Assembly (NCBI GenBank): GCA_035288725.1
Contig: DATDZK010000066.1
Location: forward strand, 1 to 25,079
Reading direction: 5' to 3'
Length of the DNA: 25,079 nucleotides
DNA from: Candidatus Nanoarchaeia archaeon
Lineage (GTDB): Archaea > Nanobdellota > Nanobdellia > SCGC-AAA011-G17 > DATDVL01
In this document: piece after piece, positions 354-24,714 of the stretch
Layout: each line of letters begins with the position of its first letter
Position numbering within the stretch: the first letter of the stretch is position 1
Notes under the pieces: generated by a model
The model's input: the letters and a program-made list of their open reading frames with translations, nothing else
Databases searched by the model: none
Told to the model about the DNA's origin: nothing
Made by a program: the position numbers and the translations under genes

Positions 354-412
354 TTTTCTTTAGAATTTTTATCGAACCAGCCCTATTAAATAAATCTCCA
401 GCCAATTGCGTG

Positions 413-545
413 TAATCGCTGTTAGTTTCTCCAGAATACTTGGAGGGATTGGGTTTTAGTGCAACGTTCGGCGAAGCCGAAAAATCCAAAGTTGAGAAAA
501 CGGCGTCTTCAAGTGCGGAGCACCAGAAATTAAAAAATGATAGGT
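413..545. repeat. Dispersed ~130-bp intergenic element, copy 1 (two GNA-triloop hairpins)
   Basis: 413-466 matches 4579-4632 at 45/54 nt, followed by hairpins TTCGGC-GAA-GCCGAA (467-481) and GTGC-GGA-GCAC (513-523). Confidence 0.8.
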
Positions 546-590
546 TTTGGGCGTTCCACTAAGTTAGCCTCTTCTGAGTAGTAAAATATA

Positions 591-604
591 GAAAACTTTA
601 TAAA
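591..604 (+). promoter_or_regulatory. Archaeal BRE/TATA promoter
   Basis: GAAAAC-TTTATAAA, with TATA ending 22 nt before the ATG at 627 (leaderless-type spacing). Confidence 0.65.
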
Positions 605-626
605 GCTTAACCTACTACTAAGTGAT

Positions 627-1208
627 ATGACAAGTCAAACACAGGAAGTGAATCTTCCAGGATATGTGAAAAAAGCGATTACCAGCAACCTTGCACTAAC
701 TGAACCATACAGTTGGTTAAGTCCTGGGCATTGGAGAGAATTAGCTGAGCATGTCTATGCCGATGAGATTATTCCACGAGCAGAAGGAACTGATGCAACA
801 TTTCTACAACGTGGAACACAAAACGCATATGGACATGGAAGGCGAAGAACATTAAATGGAATTTTGTGTTCAGCAGTGGTTGATCATAATGGTGTTGAAA
901 GTCATATTCCTAATTACAGAAGAGTCAAAGAAATTTACGAATCAGTTAACTGTGAAAGAGGAGATGATGACTTAATAGTTGGTGGAATTAAAAAAATAAT
1001 CTATAGACATATGATTGACAGAGCACCGATCCTGGAAGACAGAGAACAAAAAATCGGGTTAGATGGATTTCATGAACAGCTCTGGGAAAACGGTTGGATG
1101 GATGAAGAAGGTCATTCGCTATTAAGAGGCGAATTCAGAATCGTTTATGAAGCTCATGCAGAACCCGGTAACAACTTTATTCAATGGTCTGCTATGATAA
1201 CCGAATAA
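627..1208 (+). CDS. Hypothetical protein (193 aa)
   Basis: Long ORF with an upstream TATA box; no recognisable motif. Confidence 0.7.
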   Translation: MTSQTQEVNLPGYVKKAITSNLALTEPYSWLSPGHWRELAEHVYADEIIPRAEGTDATFLQRGTQNAYGHGRRRTLNGILCSAVVDHNGVESHIPNYRRVKEIYESVNCERGDDDLIVGGIKKIIYRHMIDRAPILEDREQKIGLDGFHEQLWENGWMDEEGHSLLRGEFRIVYEAHAEPGNNFIQWSAMITE

Positions 1209-1249
1209 ATTTAAGACGCCCCGCCTTTTAATATTTTCTCAGATTTTTT

Positions 1250-1362
1250 ACATTTGTTAGCGAGCCAGCGATTGCAACTAATCAGTGTTAGCAGACCCGA
1301 CTGAAAGGAGGAGAGCGCAGCGGGGTGCGAACGATAGTGAGCAAGTTGCGGAGGGGTCGCCG
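1250..1362. repeat. GC-rich REP-like/att-like intergenic element
   Basis: GC-rich stretch between convergent AT-rich genes, with short hairpin motifs (GC-GCA-GC) and two GTTAGC boxes. Its end, 1346-1361, is an inverted copy (13/16) of 1823-1838. Confidence 0.45.
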
Positions 1363-1788
1363 TCATTTTTTATGTAATTTCAAATATTCTTCAATTGTTT
1401 TTTTAGTATAATGTTCAATAGGTAATTTTAATGCTTCATTCAGGGTAATCCATACAAATTCCTGTCCCTCAGAATTAAGTTTAACTTCTGGCGAATCTGT
1501 TTTGCAGGCAAAATCAAAGAAGATAAAGTGTTTTTTCTTCCAAAATTCTTCACCATAAACAAATTCTTGAAAGCAAATAAACTCTATATCATAAATATCT
1601 AATCCTGTTTCTTCTTTGATTTCTCTTTTTAGAGCATCTTCGATTTTCTCTCTAAGTTCAACATGACCACCAGGAATTACATATTTATCTCTCCATTTGT
1701 GAGATTTCATTAAGAAGATTTTGCCTGCCGAATTGAAGATTAATGCACCGCAAGTTGGTTCTGGATATTGTTGTTCTGTCATAATCAT
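1363..1788 (-). CDS. NUDIX hydrolase (true start may be 1782)
   Basis: Nudix box GGHVELREKIEDALKREIKEETGL fits GX5EX7REUXEEXGU. A TATA box (plus-strand 1806-1813) favours the second ATG. Confidence 0.92.
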   Translation of the reverse strand: MIMTEQQYPEPTCGALIFNSAGKIFLMKSHKWRDKYVIPGGHVELREKIEDALKREIKEETGLDIYDIEFICFQEFVYGEEFWKKKHFIFFDFACKTDSPEVKLNSEGQEFVWITLNEALKLPIEHYTKKTIEEYLKLHKK

Positions 1789-1844
1789 TGATTATTTAAT
1801 GGAAGTTATAAATGTATCTAAAGGCGACCCCGTAGCAATTTCAC

Positions 1845-1919
1845 TTAACAGTTAATATGCGAATTCCATCATCTCCGAAACTTCTGGGCGTTTTCGTGCC
1901 ATATCCAGAAATTTTGTCA
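1845..1919. repeat. 75-bp direct repeat, copy 1 (attI-like site)
   Basis: 69/75 identical to 5089-5163. On the minus strand it ends in GTTAAGT (GTTRRRY). It lies between the divergent integrase and NUDIX genes. Confidence 0.85.
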
Positions 1920-1998
1920 TAAAAAAAGTGATACTTTTCGGGAATAGTGTAAAAATTCCGGATTTATCAAAGCAAGGCATATTAAGCTCCTTGGCTAT

Positions 1999-2487
1999 AT
2001 GGTGGTCATGGATGTCCTTGAGAAAGTGAAAAAGGAGATGTTGAGAAGAAGATACTCTGCAAGGACAATAGCAACCTACTTGAACTGCGTAAGGAGCTTC
2101 ATAAAAGCAAACCATAAGGATACAAGAAAGTACAGCAAGACAGATGTCAGGGAATTCCTGGAAAAACTAGCTGAAAAAGGGGCTTCAGGTAGCACAATAA
2201 ACGTCAACCTGCAGGCATTAAAATTTATGCTGGAATATGCATTAAACAAGCGTGTATGGATCGATATAAGATATAGCAAGAACAACAGGAAAAGGCTCCC
2301 TGAAATACTGGCATATGATGAAGTAAAAATGCTGTTTAGCACTATAAAAAACGAAAAACACCTTATCATGGTGCAGCTGCTTTACGGTGCAGGCCTGCGT
2401 GTATCCGAATTGCTTAACCTGAAAAAAATGGATTTTGTACTGGATCAATGCTATGGATGGGTCAGAAAAATACCGCCACAGTTGTAA
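1999..2487 (+). pseudogene. C-terminally truncated integron-integrase-like/XerD-like tyrosine recombinase
   Basis: SAM-like N-domain (RRRYSARTIATYLNCVRSF) and first catalytic box LLYGAGLRVSE. The frame ends at WVRK-IPPQL, where the catalytic Lys loop would follow; the HxxR and Tyr boxes are absent. Confidence 0.85.
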
Positions 2488-2500
2488 GTGCACGTTTTAA

Positions 2501-2514
2501 CGAAAGTTTTAAAT
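2501..2514 (+). promoter_or_regulatory. BRE/TATA promoter of the Fic gene
   Basis: CGAAAG-TTTTAAAT, 23 nt before ATG 2538. Confidence 0.55.
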
Positions 2515-2537
2515 AGTGGCGTGCCCATACATAGGTT

Positions 2538-3479
2538 ATGGCTTATGTTGAAACAATAAAGAGAGGAAATAAGGAATATTATTACCTTACTAAGAATCTT
2601 CGGGTTGGTATTAACAAATGGAAGAAGATTAGGGTGTATATCGGAGATAAGAAACCAACAAAATCTGAAATCCAGAAATATGCTAAAGAGATTGAGAAGC
2701 AGGTTGAGGAGGGAGGGTTCAAAAAATCAGAATACTCTTATCTTGGTGAGGAAGATGCCGAAACACTCCAGGATCTTAAAGAAGGCTATAAGGAGTGGTT
2801 AAAGAAAACCCCGGAAAGCCTCAAAAACAAGTTCTATGATGATTTTGTAATTCGGTTTACCTATCATAGCAATGCCATTGAAGGGAATAGGCTTACTCTG
2901 CGGCAAACAGCCCTTATTCTTAAAGATAAAGTTATTCCCTCTGGCGTACTGGCATCTGATTATCATGAAGCTGTAAACGGAAAGGAGTGTTTAGAATTTC
3001 TGAAAGAGCACAAAGGAGAACTAAACAGCAGATTATTGGAGAAAGTAAATGGAATTTTAACCAAGAACACTGATATTGTTTATGGGGGAAGAATTCGTTT
3101 TTTTGATGTTAAAATTGAAGGTTCTAAGCACGTCCCGCCTCCAAACGAAGAAGTGAAAAGGCATTTGCTAAACATGTATAAGTGGTATAGCGCCAATAAG
3201 AATAGATTGCACCCATTCGAGCTTGCAGCAATGATTCATGCTAAGTTAACTTGGGTTCATCCGTTTGAAGATGGCAACGGAAGGACATCTAGGACGATTA
3301 TGAACTGGATTTTGATGAAGAATGGTTATCCTATGTTCTTTATCCCGTTTGAAAAGCGAGAAGAGTATTACATGGCTTTGGAGGAAGCTGACAAAGAGAA
3401 TTTTAAGGCGTATATGGCCAGAATGTTGCGGTTGATTATAGACCAAGTAAGAAGTTACGGGCACAAGGAGAAGAAATAA
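2538..3479 (+). CDS. Fic-domain protein (class II type, internal inhibitory motif)
   Basis: Complete Fic motif HPFEDGNGRTSR and an upstream SNAIEG matching (S/T)xxxE(G/N). Confidence 0.92.
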   Translation: MAYVETIKRGNKEYYYLTKNLRVGINKWKKIRVYIGDKKPTKSEIQKYAKEIEKQVEEGGFKKSEYSYLGEEDAETLQDLKEGYKEWLKKTPESLKNKFYDDFVIRFTYHSNAIEGNRLTLRQTALILKDKVIPSGVLASDYHEAVNGKECLEFLKEHKGELNSRLLEKVNGILTKNTDIVYGGRIRFFDVKIEGSKHVPPPNEEVKRHLLNMYKWYSANKNRLHPFELAAMIHAKLTWVHPFEDGNGRTSRTIMNWILMKNGYPMFFIPFEKREEYYMALEEADKENFKAYMARMLRLIIDQVRSYGHKEKK

Positions 3480-3577
3480 GAGTAGTATATGGGCACAGAG
3501 CAGGATTAGTTATTATATTTAAGGCAAAACTGGAATATTTATATATAATTAGATTATACATTATGATAGGTAACACC

Positions 3578-3802
3578 ATGGAACAATTCGAGGCAATCCC
3601 GAAAAAATGGGGCAATTCATTAGGCATAACAATACCATCCGACATCGCAGAGCAGGAGAACATACAGCCGCAAAAGAAAATAACTGTATTGGTTATAGGG
3701 AACAAGCAGAAGCAACTTAAAAAGATGTTTGGAACCTTGAAGCTGAAAAAACCAACGCAGCAAGTAATGGATGAAATAGATGAAGGGTATGACAAACACT
3801 GA
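3578..3802 (+). CDS. vapB: AbrB/MazE/SpoVT-type antitoxin (VapB-like)
   Basis: KKWGNSLGITIP signature; overlaps the start of a PIN gene. The alternative start is 3563. Confidence 0.85.
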   Translation: MEQFEAIPKKWGNSLGITIPSDIAEQENIQPQKKITVLVIGNKQKQLKKMFGTLKLKKPTQQVMDEIDEGYDKH

Positions 3803-4165
3803 AATATTCTTTTGCGACACCTACGCATTGATAGAAATAGTCGGTGGAAATCCAAGCTATAAAAAATACCTGTCATCTTCACTGATTACCTCTGATTATA
3901 ACCTAATGGAGATGTACTATGCATTCTTGAGAGACTGCTGGGCCAGCAGACAGCGGATAAATATTTTGACCAATGGAGTAAATTTCTTGTGCAGATTCCG
4001 CTCGAAACAATAAAACAGGCAATGGTTTTCAGGCTTGCGAACAAAAAAGAGGATCTAAGCTATGTGGATTGTATAGGATATGCTTTTTCCCAGCAAAATC
4101 TGATAAAGTTTCTGACCGGAGACAGGAGATTCGAAAGCAAAATAGGGGTGGAGTTCGTCAAATAA
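3789..4165 (+). pseudogene. vapC: PIN-domain toxin (VapC-like), frameshifted near 3928-3940
   Basis: The N-half has FFCDTYALIE. The C-half is in the -1 frame: LGQQTADKYF...LSYVDCIGYA...FLTGDRRF...EFVK*, stop at 4163-4165. Confidence 0.85.
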
Positions 4166-4188
4166 AATTGAACTTATTCTTTTGGTCT

Positions 4189-4551
4189 ATGGATTTTTAC
4201 GATTTGTTCAAACCATATTCTCCTGAAATTAGGGGAGATTTAGAAGCATACTTGCGTGAGCATGATGGAAGTAGCGCCAGCAACCTTTTTTATGGACCAG
4301 AATATTTTTTGGTTATAAAAGATAAAAGGTGGATGGTTCCTGGCCAGACTTGGATAAGGGTTAATCAAAGTTCAGTTCCAGATATTGCTTATGTAGTTAA
4401 TTCTGATTTTATGTTAGAAAGTAGTGGCCGAGGGAAAGACAATATGAGTTGTGTCGGCGCTACGAGAGGAGTTTATGATCCTTCTAAAGCATTAATAAGA
4501 AAGGCATGGTCAATTTTGGGTTTGAACCTTAATCCGCCGGCCAGAACGTAA
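4189..4551 (+). CDS. Hypothetical protein (120 aa)
   Basis: The track ORF 4069..4551 overlaps the PIN C-terminus; ATG 4189 is the first start clear of it. Confidence 0.55.
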   Translation: MDFYDLFKPYSPEIRGDLEAYLREHDGSSASNLFYGPEYFLVIKDKRWMVPGQTWIRVNQSSVPDIAYVVNSDFMLESSGRGKDNMSCVGATRGVYDPSKALIRKAWSILGLNLNPPART

Positions 4552-4578
4552 TAGGGAGCACGATTTTTTAATTGAGTT

Positions 4579-4713
4579 TAATCGCTGTTAATCTCTCCCG
4601 AATACTTGCAGGGACTAAAATTTAGTGCAACGATGCCGAAGGCAAAATTTTAGAGTTTTTGTGGGCAAAATTATATCTAGCACGAAGTGCCTTAAATGAA
4701 AAATAATAAAGGG
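4579..4713. repeat. Dispersed ~130-bp intergenic element, copy 2
   Basis: Homologous to 413-545; hairpins TGCC-GAA-GGCA (4634-4644) and GCAC-GAA-GTGC (4680-4690). Confidence 0.8.
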
Positions 4714-4719
4714 CAAGAA

Positions 4720-5001
4720 TTAAAGTTTATGATAAAATTGTACAGCGACTGGAAAACCATTTTGATAACTTTCGCCGGGATTTCCAATAACATAAGCATT
4801 AGCAGGTTCAGGTTTTTCTAATTCAGCCACTAAATCTCCAACTTTGTGAAATTTGTCAGTTGGTATCCTAAGAACTTGTGGAAGACCAACAGCTAATGCG
4901 TGAACAGGTTTTTGTTCTGTTCTTATTGTTCCATCTAGATTTTGAAATCTTAATGATTCATACAAAATGTTTTCCTTCAATACTAATTCTGAAAGTTCCA
5001 T
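4720..5001 (-). CDS. Small hypothetical protein (93 aa)
   Basis: ORF with a minus-strand AGAAAGATTTATATAC promoter at 5025-5040. Confidence 0.65.
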   Translation of the reverse strand: MELSELVLKENILYESLRFQNLDGTIRTEQKPVHALAVGLPQVLRIPTDKFHKVGDLVAELEKPEPANAYVIGNPGESYQNGFPVAVQFYHKL

Positions 5002-5088
5002 ATTATATTTACAACTATTAAGTAGTATATAAATCTTTCTGTTAGTAGATTCTTGCTCCTTTCACTATTTTGCCCGCAAAAATTGAAT

Positions 5089-5163
5089 TTAACAGTTAAT
5101 ATGCGAATTCAGTCATCTCCGAAGCTTCTGGGCTTTTTCATGCCATATCAAGAAATTTTGTCA
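5089..5163. repeat. 75-bp direct repeat, copy 2 (includes the tuf stop codon)
   Basis: 69/75 identical to 1845-1919; minus-strand core GTTAAAT; 5161-5163 is the TGA of tuf. Confidence 0.85.
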
Positions 5164-6447
5164 CAAAATCTTCTTCACATAATCAATGCACATTCCAGCT
5201 GCAACAGTTGATCCAGCATCCCTGATTGCAAACCTTGCCATGTGCGGAATGTCTTTTTGCTTCTCAATGACTACAGGCTTCATTGGCTTGATCTTTACAA
5301 TTGCAACATCCCCATTCTTGATGAAGTCAACCTTGCCTTCAATCTTCTGCCCTGTTCTTGGATCAAGCTTGTGCATCAATTCTGCAAACTGGCATGCAAC
5401 CTGCGCAGTATGGATATGGAACACAGGCGTATATCCTACAGTAATCACAGTAGGATGGTTCAAGACAGCAACCTGCGCAGTAAATTCAGTCACTATTGTT
5501 GGAGGGCTGTTCTCATGTCCTAAAACATCCCCTCTTTCAATGTCCTTCATCTGTATTCCTTTTACTGTAAACCCTACATTATCCCCTGGAAGCGCTTCAG
5601 AAATAGATTCATGGTGCATCTCAATGGTCTTGACCTCTCCCTTGATTCCCTTGCCATCTCTTGCAGGTACAATTATGACCTTCTCATTCGGCTTCATCAC
5701 ACCAGTCTCAACTCTTCCAACAGGCACAACTCCTATTCCCTTGATATTATACACATCCTGAATAGGCAGCCTTAATGGCAGGTTTGTTGGCTTTTCAGGC
5801 ACGTCAAACTTGTCAAACTGCTCAAGCACTGTTGGCCCTGTATACCAGGGCATGTTTGCAGATTTCTTCACTATATTGTCTCCAATAAATCCTGCAGTAG
5901 GAATGAACTGCACCTTGTCCAGCTTATAGCCAACTCCCTGTATAAGCTTGCTAAGCTCTGCCTTGACATCTTCAAATCTCTTCTGGTCATACTTGGAAAC
6001 ATCCATCTTGTTGACAAGGACAGCAATCTGGCCAACTCCAAGTGTCCTGAGCAGCATCAAGTGCTCTTTGGTCTGCGCCATTGCCCCTTCAGGAGCAGCA
6101 ACAGCCAAAAATGCAGCATCAGCCTGGCTTGTTCCAGTAATCATGTTCTTGATGAAATCCTTATGCCCGGGAGCGTCAATTATAGTGATTTCAAACTTCT
6201 GCGTGATTACCTTCTTGTATGAAAGGTCAATCGTTACTCCCCTTTCCCTCTCTTCCTTCAGGTTGTCCATGACAAATGCAAACTCAAACCCGACCTTCCC
6301 CACCTGCTGTGCAGTCTCCTTCAGCTTTCTCATGGTAGCGTCATCAATCTTTCCAGAATCATACATAAGCCTGCCTATTGTAGTGCTCTTTCCGTGGTCA
6401 ACATGGCCAACGAAAACAATATTTAAGTGTGGTTTTGCTCTTGCCAT
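5161..6447 (-). CDS. tuf: Translation elongation factor EF-1alpha
   Basis: [19 protein letters not shown] and NKMD motifs; archaeal-type N-terminus; upstream GAGGT SD. Confidence 0.99.
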
Positions 6448-23023: not shown

Positions 23024-23124
23024 CGGGCCGGATGGGATTTGAACCCATGACCACTTGCTTGCCTTGAAGCATGATTGCTTGCTTGATAAAAGGCAAATGC
23101 TCTACCAAGCTGAGCTACCGGCCC
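23024..23124 (-). tRNA. tRNA-Lys(UUU) with a 27-nt intron at 37/38 (23060-23086)
   Basis: Cloverleaf GGGCCGG/CCGGCCC, anticodon TTT, G73. Central BHB helix CUUU/AAGG; CCA not encoded. Confidence 0.93.
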
Positions 23125-23126
23125 AA

Positions 23127-23221
23127 CGCCCTAGGCGAGAATTGAACTCGCGCCACAGCCTTTCTTTGGGCCTACTCATGCCCGTGACAGGGCTGTATCC
23201 TAACCACTAGACGACTAGGGC
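23127..23221 (-). tRNA. tRNA-Asp(GUC) with a 23-nt intron at 37/38 (23162-23184)
   Basis: GCCCTAG/CTAGGGC acceptor, CAGCC/GGCTG anticodon stem, anticodon GTC, G73; intron stem GGGC/GCCC. Confidence 0.92.
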
Positions 23222-24593: not shown

Positions 24594-24714
24594 TCCCACA
24601 GGGAGGACTCGAACCTCCAACTTGTCGGTGTCAGCTGATGGTTCTTCCTCCAACGCATCAAGCGCTGTCTGACCATTTCTACAGCCGACTACTCTACCAT
24701 TGAGTTACTGTGGG
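24594..24714 (-). tRNA. tRNA-Tyr(GUA) with a 49-nt intron at 37/38 (24630-24678)
   Basis: C1-G72 and A73 (archaeal Tyr identity), anticodon GTA, short variable loop; TATA CTTATAAG at 24741-24748. Confidence 0.93.

Follow-up and report, generated by a model that had tools for sequence, protein, structure and literature searches.

A structured, dif-like element as the probable junction between single-gene cassettes in a DPANN archaeon

Results

Two copies of a non-coding element lie among single-gene cassettes

The window, the whole 25,079-nucleotide stretch of Candidatus Nanoarchaeia archaeon contig DATDZK010000066.1 that we analyzed, contains two similar non-coding elements, each 3′ of the stop codon of a + strand orphan gene (stops at 353 and 4551). 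Neither gene matched a Pfam or NCBIfam family. The pair, placed at 413-545 and 4579-4713 in the initial annotation, is real: the 63 nt at 404-466 match 4570-4632 with 83% identity, and the BLAST alignment of the two copies stretches to ~78 nt (80% identity, E 3e-13). Five dif-like sites split positions 400-5100 into cassettes of one gene each. The features are as follows.

405-492 and 4571-4656: conserved non-coding copies A and B (63-nt block plus covarying C(GAA)G hairpin)
405-432, + strand: junction J1, dif-like site (left arm ATTGCGTGTAA, 405-415; spacer TCGCTG, 416-421; right arm TTAGTTTCTCC, 422-432)
416-492, + strand: core of copy A, covariance-model match 104 bits (P1, 430-433/445-448; P2, 449-457/481-489; invariant bulge AGTGCAACG, 458-466; P3, 468-472/476-480, loop GAA; 3′ end AAAGT, 488-492)
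513-523, + strand: second hairpin on the copy A side, GTGC-GGA-GCAC, a cassette-private C(GNA)G mini-hairpin outside the conserved core
627-1208, + strand: orphan ORF of 193 aa, the cargo of cassette 1 (TATA-like box, 596-604)
1271-1342, + strand: junction J2, dif-like site 1271-1298 (ATTGCAACTAA / TCAGTG / TTAGCAGACCC, pattern match), then a variant structured linker
1343-1841: cassette 2, with a Nudix hydrolase gene on the − strand (1363-1788; Pfam NUDIX)
1838-1865, + strand: junction J3 (ATTTCACTTAA / CAGTTA / ATATGCGAATT), array-terminal dif-like anchor that opens repeat D1a
1999-2487, + strand: gene for a XerA-family tyrosine recombinase, truncated (162 aa; by Pfam, it keeps the SAM-like domain but no more than the beginning of the catalytic one)
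4571-4598, + strand: junction J4, dif-like site (ATTGAGTTTAA, 4571-4581; TCGCTG, 4582-4587; TTAATCTCTCC, 4588-4598; exact pattern match)
4582-4656, + strand: core of copy B, covariance-model match 86.6 bits (P1, 4596-4599/4611-4614; P2, 4615-4623/4645-4653; bulge AGTGCAACG, 4624-4632; P3, 4634-4637/4641-4644, loop GAA; 3′ end AGAGT)
4656-5082: cassette 3, with a 93-aa orphan gene on the − strand (4720-5001)
4680-4690: second hairpin on the copy B side, GCAC-GAA-GTGC, a mini-hairpin within cassette 3
5082-5109, + strand: junction J5 (ATTGAATTTAA / CAGTTA / ATATGCGAATT), which opens repeat D1b

Each copy opens with a site of 11-6-11 architecture (ATTGnnnnTAA / TCGCTG / TTAGTTTCTCC); that of J1 was tabulated together with 43 other copies. 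This 5′ site and helices P1 and P2 were not part of the initial annotation, nor were the third junction at 1271-1342, with its different linker, and the tie to the repeat pair D1a and D1b (1829-1924 and 5073-5168), at whose starts J3 and J5 lie. J2 folds at z −2.1, and comparable variant linkers occur in relatives G099 and G072. The remainder of D1b reaches the stop codon of the EF-1alpha gene (5161).

Clear private inverted repeats are present in two of the three window cassettes. In cassette 2, 1343-1361 and 1823-1841 match at 15 of 19 positions; cassette 3 has 4656-4671 and 5067-5082 (15/16) and a nested pair, 4708-4720 and 5049-5061. Around the cassette 1 gene we found by eye only a weak, tentative 8-bp pair (502-509/1213-1220). 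The proposed tie to mobile, variable orphan genes holds for the cargo: the 193-aa ORF matched no family and had no homologue among 240 genomes of the order, and for the 93-aa gene, 5.8 billion proteins contained just two relatives.

The core has a covarying fold

After each dif-like site lies ~60 nt of conserved fold-back DNA, consisting of three short helices and a C(GAA)G mini-hairpin. DNA folding of copy A recovered P1-P3 (z −2.2). The first hairpin of the initial annotation, TTCGGC-GAA-GCCGAA at 467-481 and TGCC-GAA-GGCA at 4634-4644, corresponds to the family-wide helix P3, in which four of five pairs covary. In a 39-copy alignment, compensatory changes were found at 14 of 18 pairs, and 91% of cells pair, compared with 31-73% when partners were slid. 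With 80 independent copies, the values were 15 of 18 pairs and 92.3% of cells; none of 500 shuffles reached the observed values on four of five measures, and two did on the fifth. Compensatory changes thus bear out the earlier suggestion that structure, and not sequence alone, is selected. About 90% of cells in the family are pure Watson-Crick, and the non-Watson-Crick cells include 36 G·T and 35 A·C. The P1 loop is either 2-5 or 10-11 nt long among copies. An invariant TTAGTGCAAC inside the core itself resembles a dif arm.

The element belongs to a large, co-oriented family

Of the 240 genomes in the order, 104 carry the element by BLAST, frequently in 2-4 copies each. A further 83 copies, collected independently, derive chiefly from MAGs of Woesearchaeota, Pacearchaeota and Nanoarchaeota. 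Across genomes, the family has >120 copies; the 57%-complete host genome itself contains just two canonical copies, and neither of two same-genus genomes has a canonical element.

The left arms (consensus ATT[G/A]nnn[A/T]TAA) match the E. coli XerD arm at 4-10 of 11 positions (median 8), using an E. coli dif sequence confirmed from print. Arm palindromy was 4.5 versus 3.4 ± 0.3 in shuffles, a modest signal (z ~3.8), with the right arm being a poor palindromic partner. The J1 left arm and the J3 right arm resemble, respectively, an arm and the right arm (TTATACGAATT) of the host genome's own dif. This separate, near-perfect palindromic site lies directly upstream of a full xerA on contig C41 of the host genome (G000).

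The array architecture recurs in relatives. On multi-copy contigs, copies were co-oriented in all cases (~19 contigs, plus all 10 such contigs of the independent set), and one gene lies between successive sites also in G072, G099 and G176. Private inverted repeats adjoin the core end and the following left arm in the window and at 9-10 other loci.

XerA-family genes are linked to some arrays

The first array of the window stops just upstream of the truncated XerA-family gene, with J3 128 nt upstream of it. The gene product matches NF040815 at 83.9 bits and the integron-integrase model below its cut-off; it shares just 32% identity with the complete XerA encoded on C41. Arrays end 41-160 nt upstream of a XerA-family gene in the window, in G176 and G099 and on metagenome contig L198, whose array ends in a dif that is palindromic at 9 of 11 positions. 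Of 81 independent loci, eight had a XerA-family gene, seven of these on the same strand, compared with an estimated chance expectation of ~1.5%; a recombinase lies within 8 kb at only ~10% of junction loci. Closed genomes have two or more XerA-family genes. Recombinases linked to arrays form two or more clades and do not separate cleanly from those near orc1.

Cassette and core sequences recur in unrelated contexts

The same cassette occurs in two contexts. The stretch 4615-5094 is 88% identical to part of the array on L198, while the flanks are unrelated. On the right, homology breaks at position 5094, inside the dif-like spacer (TAA-CA|); on the left, it begins at P2 rather than in the spacer. 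Core B (75 nt, from the spacer to AGAGT) is 100% identical in G099, a genome of another family, again with unrelated flanks. The preceding left-arm TAA and the following T are also common to both, and identity stops right at the 3′ edge of the core. Because of the L198 start at P2 and the G099 end at this edge, one crossover point in the spacer does not account for all mosaics. We saw neither excision circles nor empty sites nor differences in cassette order; the tuf neighborhoods of relatives are too rearranged for empty-site comparison.

Discussion

Our analysis suggests that the two copies are probably not genes but junction modules of a Xer-type site-specific-recombination, integron-like cassette array, with hairpins that act at the DNA level. 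On our best reading, the junction separates small, swappable gene cassettes in DPANN archaea. We found no description in print of an integron-like gene-collecting system of DPANN archaea with such junctions. The initial annotation had offered a recombination substrate, a REP-like element or a structured non-coding RNA (ncRNA) family. A DNA-level substrate fits better than RNA, given the equal G·T and A·C counts and the enrichment of C(GNA)G mini-hairpins described below; the REP-like element is not supported.

The site is a 28-bp Xer/dif-type sequence in which 6 bp of spacer separate the 11-bp left arm from a degenerate right arm, also of 11 bp. A cassette starts at a spacer and takes in the core, a private repeat arm, a single gene under its own promoter and the second, matching repeat arm, up to the left arm that follows. 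Strand exchange would occur in the spacer and be carried out by a XerA-family tyrosine recombinase, either the paralogue often encoded at the array end or housekeeping XerA acting in trans. Cassettes may be inserted or excised as circles at a dif-like anchor, accumulating much as Xer-exploiting mobile elements do at bacterial dif and as integron cassettes do. The conserved hairpins and private repeats could form extruded or single-stranded DNA folds that provide accessory architecture or determine the direction of the reaction.

The site resembles the archaeal XerA/dif module (Cortez et al., 2010; PMC2958812) in its 11-6-11 form, its XerA-family enzyme and its sometimes gene-adjacent position, and the host genome has such a module of its own on C41. 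Archaeal dif, however, is single-copy and nearly palindromic, whereas the sites at the junctions occur in many copies, with a degenerate right arm, and lie between mobile genes. 

An unlikely alternative is that the chromosomal dif region and its flanks were duplicated by IMEX-type integrations through housekeeping XerA, with no dedicated platform or recombinase. This explanation overlaps ours, the chief difference being which enzyme acts. Archaeal xerA/dif modules are known, and IMEX such as CTXphi, TLCphi, VGJphi and the gonococcal genetic island exploit Xer at dif (both reviewed in PMC5357621). As in IMEX, direct dif-like sites surround integrase-less units, one arm is degenerate and tandem build-up at one anchor is possible; CTXphi also has folded single-stranded sites. 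The G176 site is 12 kb from the point opposite orc1 and the G099 site ~142 degrees from orc1. G152 carries elements with a single, distant XerA gene, but its copies are at two distant places. Moreover, the palindromic dif of the host genome sits apart from the array, and in closed genomes a second XerA-family gene lies at the array end. In contrast to phages or islands, the cassettes carry one gene each, many per array, with a conserved structured linker, archaeal hosts and often a XerA paralogue at the array end.

The pdif sites of Acinetobacter alternate in orientation, whereas all sites here are direct repeats. pdif modules (PMC6449649, PMC12907356) are likewise small, often carry toxin-antitoxin or accessory genes and have Xer-type borders in varied contexts, but they are bacterial and plasmid-borne, use XerC and XerD and lack a conserved hairpin linker.

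We consider it quite unlikely that the core is a small structured ncRNA gene, a regulator or guide, that heads each cassette, with the dif-like left arm doubling as a TATA box. Strong covariation, the invariant unpaired stretches (AGTGCAACG), the sharp identity borders at both ends and the ATATAA-like left arms ~25 nt ahead of P1 speak for such a gene. However, with equal G·T and A·C counts and ~90% of cells pure Watson-Crick, RNA is disfavored, though there may still be a transcript. With this lack of wobble bias and no match in Rfam, the proposed free-standing ncRNA family was not upheld by these tests. In addition, strict co-orientation is unexpected for independent RNA genes, the C(GNA)G loop is a type noted for its stability in DNA, and there is no conserved oligo-T terminator 3′ of the core, because P2 flips A/T freely.

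An ordinary integron array, in which the element is attC, is very improbable. Archaeal integrons and attC clusters without integrase (CALINs) have been published, including for Nanoarchaeota (Ghaly et al., 2022; PMC9668308). Shared with the integron system (IntI, attI, attC) are co-oriented arrays in which most cassettes hold one gene and the orphan cargo varies, a gene for a tyrosine recombinase at one array end and hairpin-forming, structure-conserved sites between cassettes. Long-form junctions in relatives even fold attC-like, with TAAC and GTTA boxes paired and a bulge between, but the window copies are without any R″/L″ partner strand. The recombinases (268-280 aa) also match the integron-integrase model TIGR02249, but below its cut-off and in two separate segments, as would be seen if they lacked the integron-specific insert; they score above the XerA cut-off. 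The junction is instead a double-strand-type 11-6-11 repeat with a ~60-nt linker, highly conserved in sequence across families. The halves of each cassette's inverted repeat flank the gene rather than lying behind it, genes are on either strand with their own promoters, and the recombinase gene is downstream of, and co-oriented with, the array.

Chance similarity or a pseudogene fragment, which the two copies in the host genome and a minus strand readable as a short peptide might have suggested, is refuted by family size and covariation, and the indels between copies, like the P1 loop lengths, break the frame by not being multiples of three.

The second hairpin of the initial annotation is present on both sides but lies outside the conserved unit, is unaligned among relatives and gives folds no more stable than those of shuffled sequence (z +0.44 and −0.82). 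Thus, the swapped stem strands previously taken as covariation are two independent, non-homologous hairpins of one motif class. Within 90 nt 3′ of the core, C(GNA)G hairpins with stems of at least 4 bp occur at 18 of 88 junctions compared with 1% of control windows, a ~20-fold enrichment. Mini-hairpins of the d(GCGAAGC) type are known from phage origins and promoters, where they stand singly. Here they recur within a recombination junction: like them, P3 and the extra hairpins have short G+C stems, capped by triloops of the C(GAA)G, C(GGA)G or C(GTA)G kind.

A conserved element with a selected three-helix fold

The initial annotation described two copies of a noncoding element in the window, a complete 25-kb contig from a genome of 545 kb that is 57% complete. 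The block shared by the two copies extends over 404-466 and 4570-4632 (83% identity over 63 nt), and by BLAST the match is ~78 nt (E 3e-13). As had been described, each copy is 3′ of the stop codon of a + strand gene without a recognizable family, and a first hairpin is present in both with different stems (TTCGGC-GAA-GCCGAA versus TGCC-GAA-GGCA). The second proposed hairpin fared less well. The sequences exist at 513-523 and 4680-4690 and are of the C(GNA)G class, but the hairpins of the two copies are not homologous and lack thermodynamic support of their own.

Using BLAST against genomes of the same order, we found matches to the element in 104 of 240, with E < 1e-5 in ~60; many of these genomes hold two to four copies, frequently at contig ends. 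The aligned copies define a unit of ~85 nt that starts with TAATCGCTGTTAGTTTC and ends with AAAGT. Three helices make up its fold: P1, TCCC...GGGA, which follows the unit start and has a loop of either 2-5 or 10-11 nt; P2, TTGATTTTT paired with AAAAATCAA, which encloses an invariant AGTGCAACG and the third helix; and P3, whose loop is C(GAA)G. RNAalifold reported no structure from a plain MAFFT alignment, owing to gap placement. We therefore set the structure by hand, realigned the copies with Infernal, and built a covariance model on the three-helix structure. In 39 copies, 91% of cells were paired and double changes occurred at 14 of the 18 pairs, whereas only 31-73% of cells paired in slid controls.

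We obtained an independent set by scanning 185,579 species genomes with a 16-base pattern and filtering with the covariance model. None of the resulting 83 copies, found mostly in metagenome-assembled genomes (MAGs) labelled Woesearchaeota, Pacearchaeota, or Nanoarchaeota, had been used to build the model. In this set, 92.3% of cells were paired, with compensatory changes at 15 of 18 pairs. Across five measures and 500 shuffles, the observed value was reached by no shuffle on four measures and by two on the remaining one. Thus, the element is real and its structure is under selection, as the initial annotation had proposed from the two window copies. BLAST and the covariance model find only those two canonical copies in the source genome; the family covaries in both the 39-copy and the independent alignments.

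Covariance-model matches of 43-96 bits also occurred in MAGs labelled Thermoplasmatales, Methanosarcinales, Methanocellales, Aenigmatarchaeota, Portnoybacteria, and Bacteroidales (loci L067, L074, L083, L090, L091, L096, L098, L114, L122-L124, and L130). These are either mis-binned DPANN contigs or signs of a wider host range, and G+C content does not discriminate between the two.

Several other identities were considered. A pseudogene fragment is ruled out, as length variants break the reading frame. REP/BIME-type palindromes, scattered in both orientations, do not describe copies that are clustered, co-oriented, and punctuate genes. The idea that the core is the target gene of tRNA-style integrases was dropped, given the dif-like architecture described below, the patchy distribution, and the occurrence of identical cores in unrelated flanks; support was likewise absent for a tRNA or split tRNA. 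Elsewhere in the window, three Rfam tRNA matches (23024-23124, 23127-23221, and 24594-24714, − strand) are 95-121 nt long, which leaves room for introns. ARAGORN calls only one of the three, with an odd four-base anticodon.

A dif-like site at the 5′ end of the element

We tabulated 44 copies aligned on a conserved TGTTA. At the start of each is a left arm of 11 bp, with the consensus ATT[G/A]nnn[A/T]TAA; the spacer that follows has 6 bp and mostly reads TCGCTG or TTCCTG, and the right arm, again of 11 bp, is TTA[G/T][T/A]TTCTCC. The arms form an imperfect inverted repeat in which 4.5 of 11 positions match, compared to 3.4 ± 0.3 in shuffles, and their inner TAA/TTA is almost invariant. Left arms are identical to the E. 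coli XerD arm at 4-10 of 11 positions (median 8) and right arms to the XerC arm at 4-7 of 11; the E. coli dif string used was confirmed in print. The invariant TTAGTGCAAC looks like the palindromic counterpart of the left-arm consensus, TTATGTGCAAT, and may be an extra recombinase half-site.

Some archaea possess xerA/dif modules (review, PMC5357621). On contig C41 of the source genome (positions 1-925), a full-length XerA (253 bits on NF040815) is immediately preceded by a site that is palindromic at 10 of 11 positions, AATACGTATAA-TCAGCA-TTATACGAATT, ~55 nt from the contig start. This is probably the housekeeping xerA/dif module. The left arm of the window junction at 405 and the right half of D1, a 96-nt direct repeat, resemble the arms of this site. 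Unlike single-copy dif, the element is present in 2-12 copies per genome. In one genome of the same order (G176) the sites are near the point opposite orc1; in another (G099) they are 87 kb away from that point.

Junction sites delimit single-gene cassettes

Consecutive sites in the window are separated by intervals that each hold one gene, on either strand.

Junctions, cassettes, and private repeats in the window
405, + strand: junction site (pattern search of the window)
1271, + strand: junction site, co-oriented (same search)
4571, + strand: junction site, co-oriented (same search)
1838: D1 copy, starting with the same kind of left arm
5082: second D1 copy, starting with the same kind of left arm
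432-1271: cassette, one non-recombinase gene, flanked by direct dif-like sites
1298-1838: cassette, likewise
4598-5082: cassette, likewise
1343-1361 / 1823-1841: inverted repeat around a Nudix gene
4656-4671 / 5067-5082: inverted repeat (15/16), plus a nested second pair, around a gene for a 93-aa protein
Around a gene for a 193-aa protein: only a weak 8-bp inverted pair

A clear private inverted repeat thus surrounds the gene in two of three window cassettes, beginning directly after the core and finishing at the next left arm. A structured linker of another kind follows the site at 1271; hence the canonical core, although the most frequent linker, is not the sole type. Positions 1838-1865 close the first array, 128 nt upstream of the window's own XerA-family gene, which is truncated after 162 aa.

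Relatives have similar layouts. In G176, a single cassette is bounded by a canonical junction and by a left-arm anchor located 113 nt upstream of a XerA-like gene. In a further genome, G072, four junctions have single genes between them, with flanking repeats on each. In G099, 3 kb hold three or four junctions, and a XerA-like gene is encoded 4.4 kb away on the same strand. A systematic scan revealed 9-10 further loci at which the best inverted repeat runs from the core edge to the next left arm. On every contig with at least two copies (~19 at the order level, 10 of 10 in the independent set), the copies are on the same strand. The genes downstream of these co-oriented sites are on the + strand in 16 cases and the − strand in 12, with TATA-like boxes of their own.

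On contig C1 of G099 (L038, 10540-10600, minus strand), the stop codon of an iron-sulfur-cluster-type gene is directly followed by a partial core that retains just its 3′ half, TTTTAGTGCAATG...AAAGT. It is probably the outer edge of that array.

Arrays are linked to XerA-family genes

What connects the junction sites to Xer is gene linkage. Within 8 kb, a XerA-family gene is present at 8 of 81 independent loci, where we estimate a chance expectation of ~1.5%; the gene is on the same strand in seven and downstream in six. On L198, an 85-kb metagenome contig, the array ends in a dif that is palindromic at 9 of 11 positions, 41 nt upstream of a XerA-like gene. The G099 neighbor scores 226.8 bits against the XerA model (cut-off 220) and, in two stretches, 203.7 bits against TIGR02249 (cut-off 265). 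Array-linked recombinases are 268-280 aa long.

Closed genomes carry at least two XerA-family genes; in G099 and G176, one is near orc1 and one is at the array. G152, a third genome of the order, contains elements, and its sole XerA-family gene is the orc1-proximal one. In these three closed or near-closed genomes, a XerA-family gene is 9-26 kb from the best orc1/cdc6 gene. In a recombinase tree, the array-linked enzymes fell into at least two clades and not one, and the roles did not separate.

The pairing constraint looks like one on DNA

The initial annotation had also offered a structured noncoding RNA family. We searched the window and eight relatives with Rfam and recovered no match to the element at the gathering threshold or at E < 1; at permissive E-values, the matches were chance CRISPR-repeat or C/D-box fragments (E 4-7). 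A folded RNA is expected to tolerate G·U far more than A·C. Among 1326 paired cells of the independent set, G·T and A·C occurred 36 and 35 times; in the first, smaller set the counts were 24 and 14. With G·T about equal to A·C, the constraint looks strand-symmetric, as DNA would give. The lack of an Rfam match and of a preference for G·U over A·C argues against the RNA family, and the base-pair counts suggest that pairing is constrained in DNA.

The C(GNA)G loop is of a type known from very stable DNA mini-hairpins. Hairpins of this class lie within 90 nt 3′ of the core at 18 of 88 junctions, compared to 1% of control windows.

Cassettes and cores are found in unrelated surroundings

The orphan 193-aa cassette protein has no homologues in the 240 genomes of the order; for the 93-aa protein, likewise an orphan, a set of 5.8 billion proteins contains two relatives. 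A metagenome scan placed one of these on L198, where homology is limited to window positions 4615-5094 (88% nucleotide identity) and both flanks are unrelated. There, the shared cassette is inside another array, with a long-form junction on either side. The right-hand break of homology is two bases into the spacer, after TAA-CA; the homology starts at P2 and not at the spacer. The 75 nt of the core at 4582-4656 are identical to a copy in G099, which belongs to a different family, again with unrelated flanks on both sides, and the identity ends at the 3′ edge of the core. The start at P2 in one case and the stop at the 3′ edge in the other indicate that exchange is not confined to one point. 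Judging from these breakpoints, homologous recombination between cores likely contributes.

The canonical element was absent from both genomes of the same genus, each 88% complete. All 15 pattern matches in viral contigs failed the covariance model, leaving no true copy. No cassette circle or empty site was found; the comparison for an empty site used the tuf locus in three relatives, where rearrangement has made the neighborhoods differ in every case.

A candidate platform for gene capture

The genomes of DPANN archaea are tiny and these organisms are host-dependent; little is understood of how they acquire and shuffle accessory genes. Our most far-reaching interpretation, which we consider to have an even chance of being correct, is that DPANN archaea of several orders carry a widespread, integron-analogous gene-capture platform built from the chromosome-resolution toolkit, an independent archaeal invention of cassette arrays. 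It would combine dif-like junctions between cassettes with an anchoring dif and a XerA-family recombinase, and the conserved three-helix DNA fold and the split private hairpins would license or direct recombination. By analogy with attC sites and the folded CTXphi site, the fold of core and private repeat could present the site or bias the reaction.

Such a platform would work like integrons and tandem Xer-exploiting elements, but it fails defining tests of both. The array recombinases lack the additional domain specific to IntI. Integron attC sites have R″-L″...L′-R′ boxes (RYYYAAC / GTTRRRY) that build a single imperfect hairpin with extrahelical bases, whereas hairpins in the window copies are confined to P1-P3 and no partner strand is available to the arms; an attC-like fold is seen only in long-form junctions of relatives. 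Integron cassettes are promoterless and share a common promoter; here, the sites are co-oriented and the genes are on either strand. By contrast with dif, the junction sites are multi-copy and have a degenerate arm. As in IMEX-like elements, the units are flanked by direct dif-like sites and encode no integrase of their own. Literature searches turned up integrons and CALINs in archaea (PMC9668308), XerA/dif in archaea (PMC2958812, PMC8371274), and Xer modules in bacteria; none of the descriptions found matches this arrangement.

If the interpretation is true, the hypervariable islands and many of the contig breaks in DPANN MAGs would have an explanation, integron-like gene capture would have a second, independent example, and Archaea would supply a natural instance of a Xer enzyme recruited for acquiring genes. 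Searches for such arrays could use the conserved 75-nt core directly as a probe, and biochemistry could use it as a defined substrate.

The D1 repeat and long-form junctions

The copies of D1 (1829-1924 and 5073-5168) are 86% identical, and each opens with a left arm of the junction type and a right arm that is dif-like. The first copy precedes the truncated xerA-like gene, and the second directly adjoins the stop codon of the EF-1alpha gene. Between the two copies, 3.2 kb hold the recombinase fragment, a Fic gene, a MazE/AbrB-type antitoxin, a PIN-like gene (3780-4165) that appears frameshifted and whose assignment lacks Pfam confirmation, and an orphan. The D1-bounded stretch may represent a recombinase-bearing element that was inserted or rearranged. 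In its full length, D1 is not widespread. We considered and rejected D1 as the 5′ domain of long-form junctions, as only its first ~25 nt, comprising the left arm and the preceding bases, are common to both.

Long-form junctions occur at L018, L014, L024, L027, L020, L016, L034, and L198. In these, the left arm and the spacer are separated by an extra conserved module of 75-110 nt, whose ends, for example GGAATTTAACG and CGTTAAATTCC, pair and covary with the spacer, giving the attC-like fold with a 2-nt bulge. The module could be a mini-cassette that lacks a gene, or a site that folds as a single strand.
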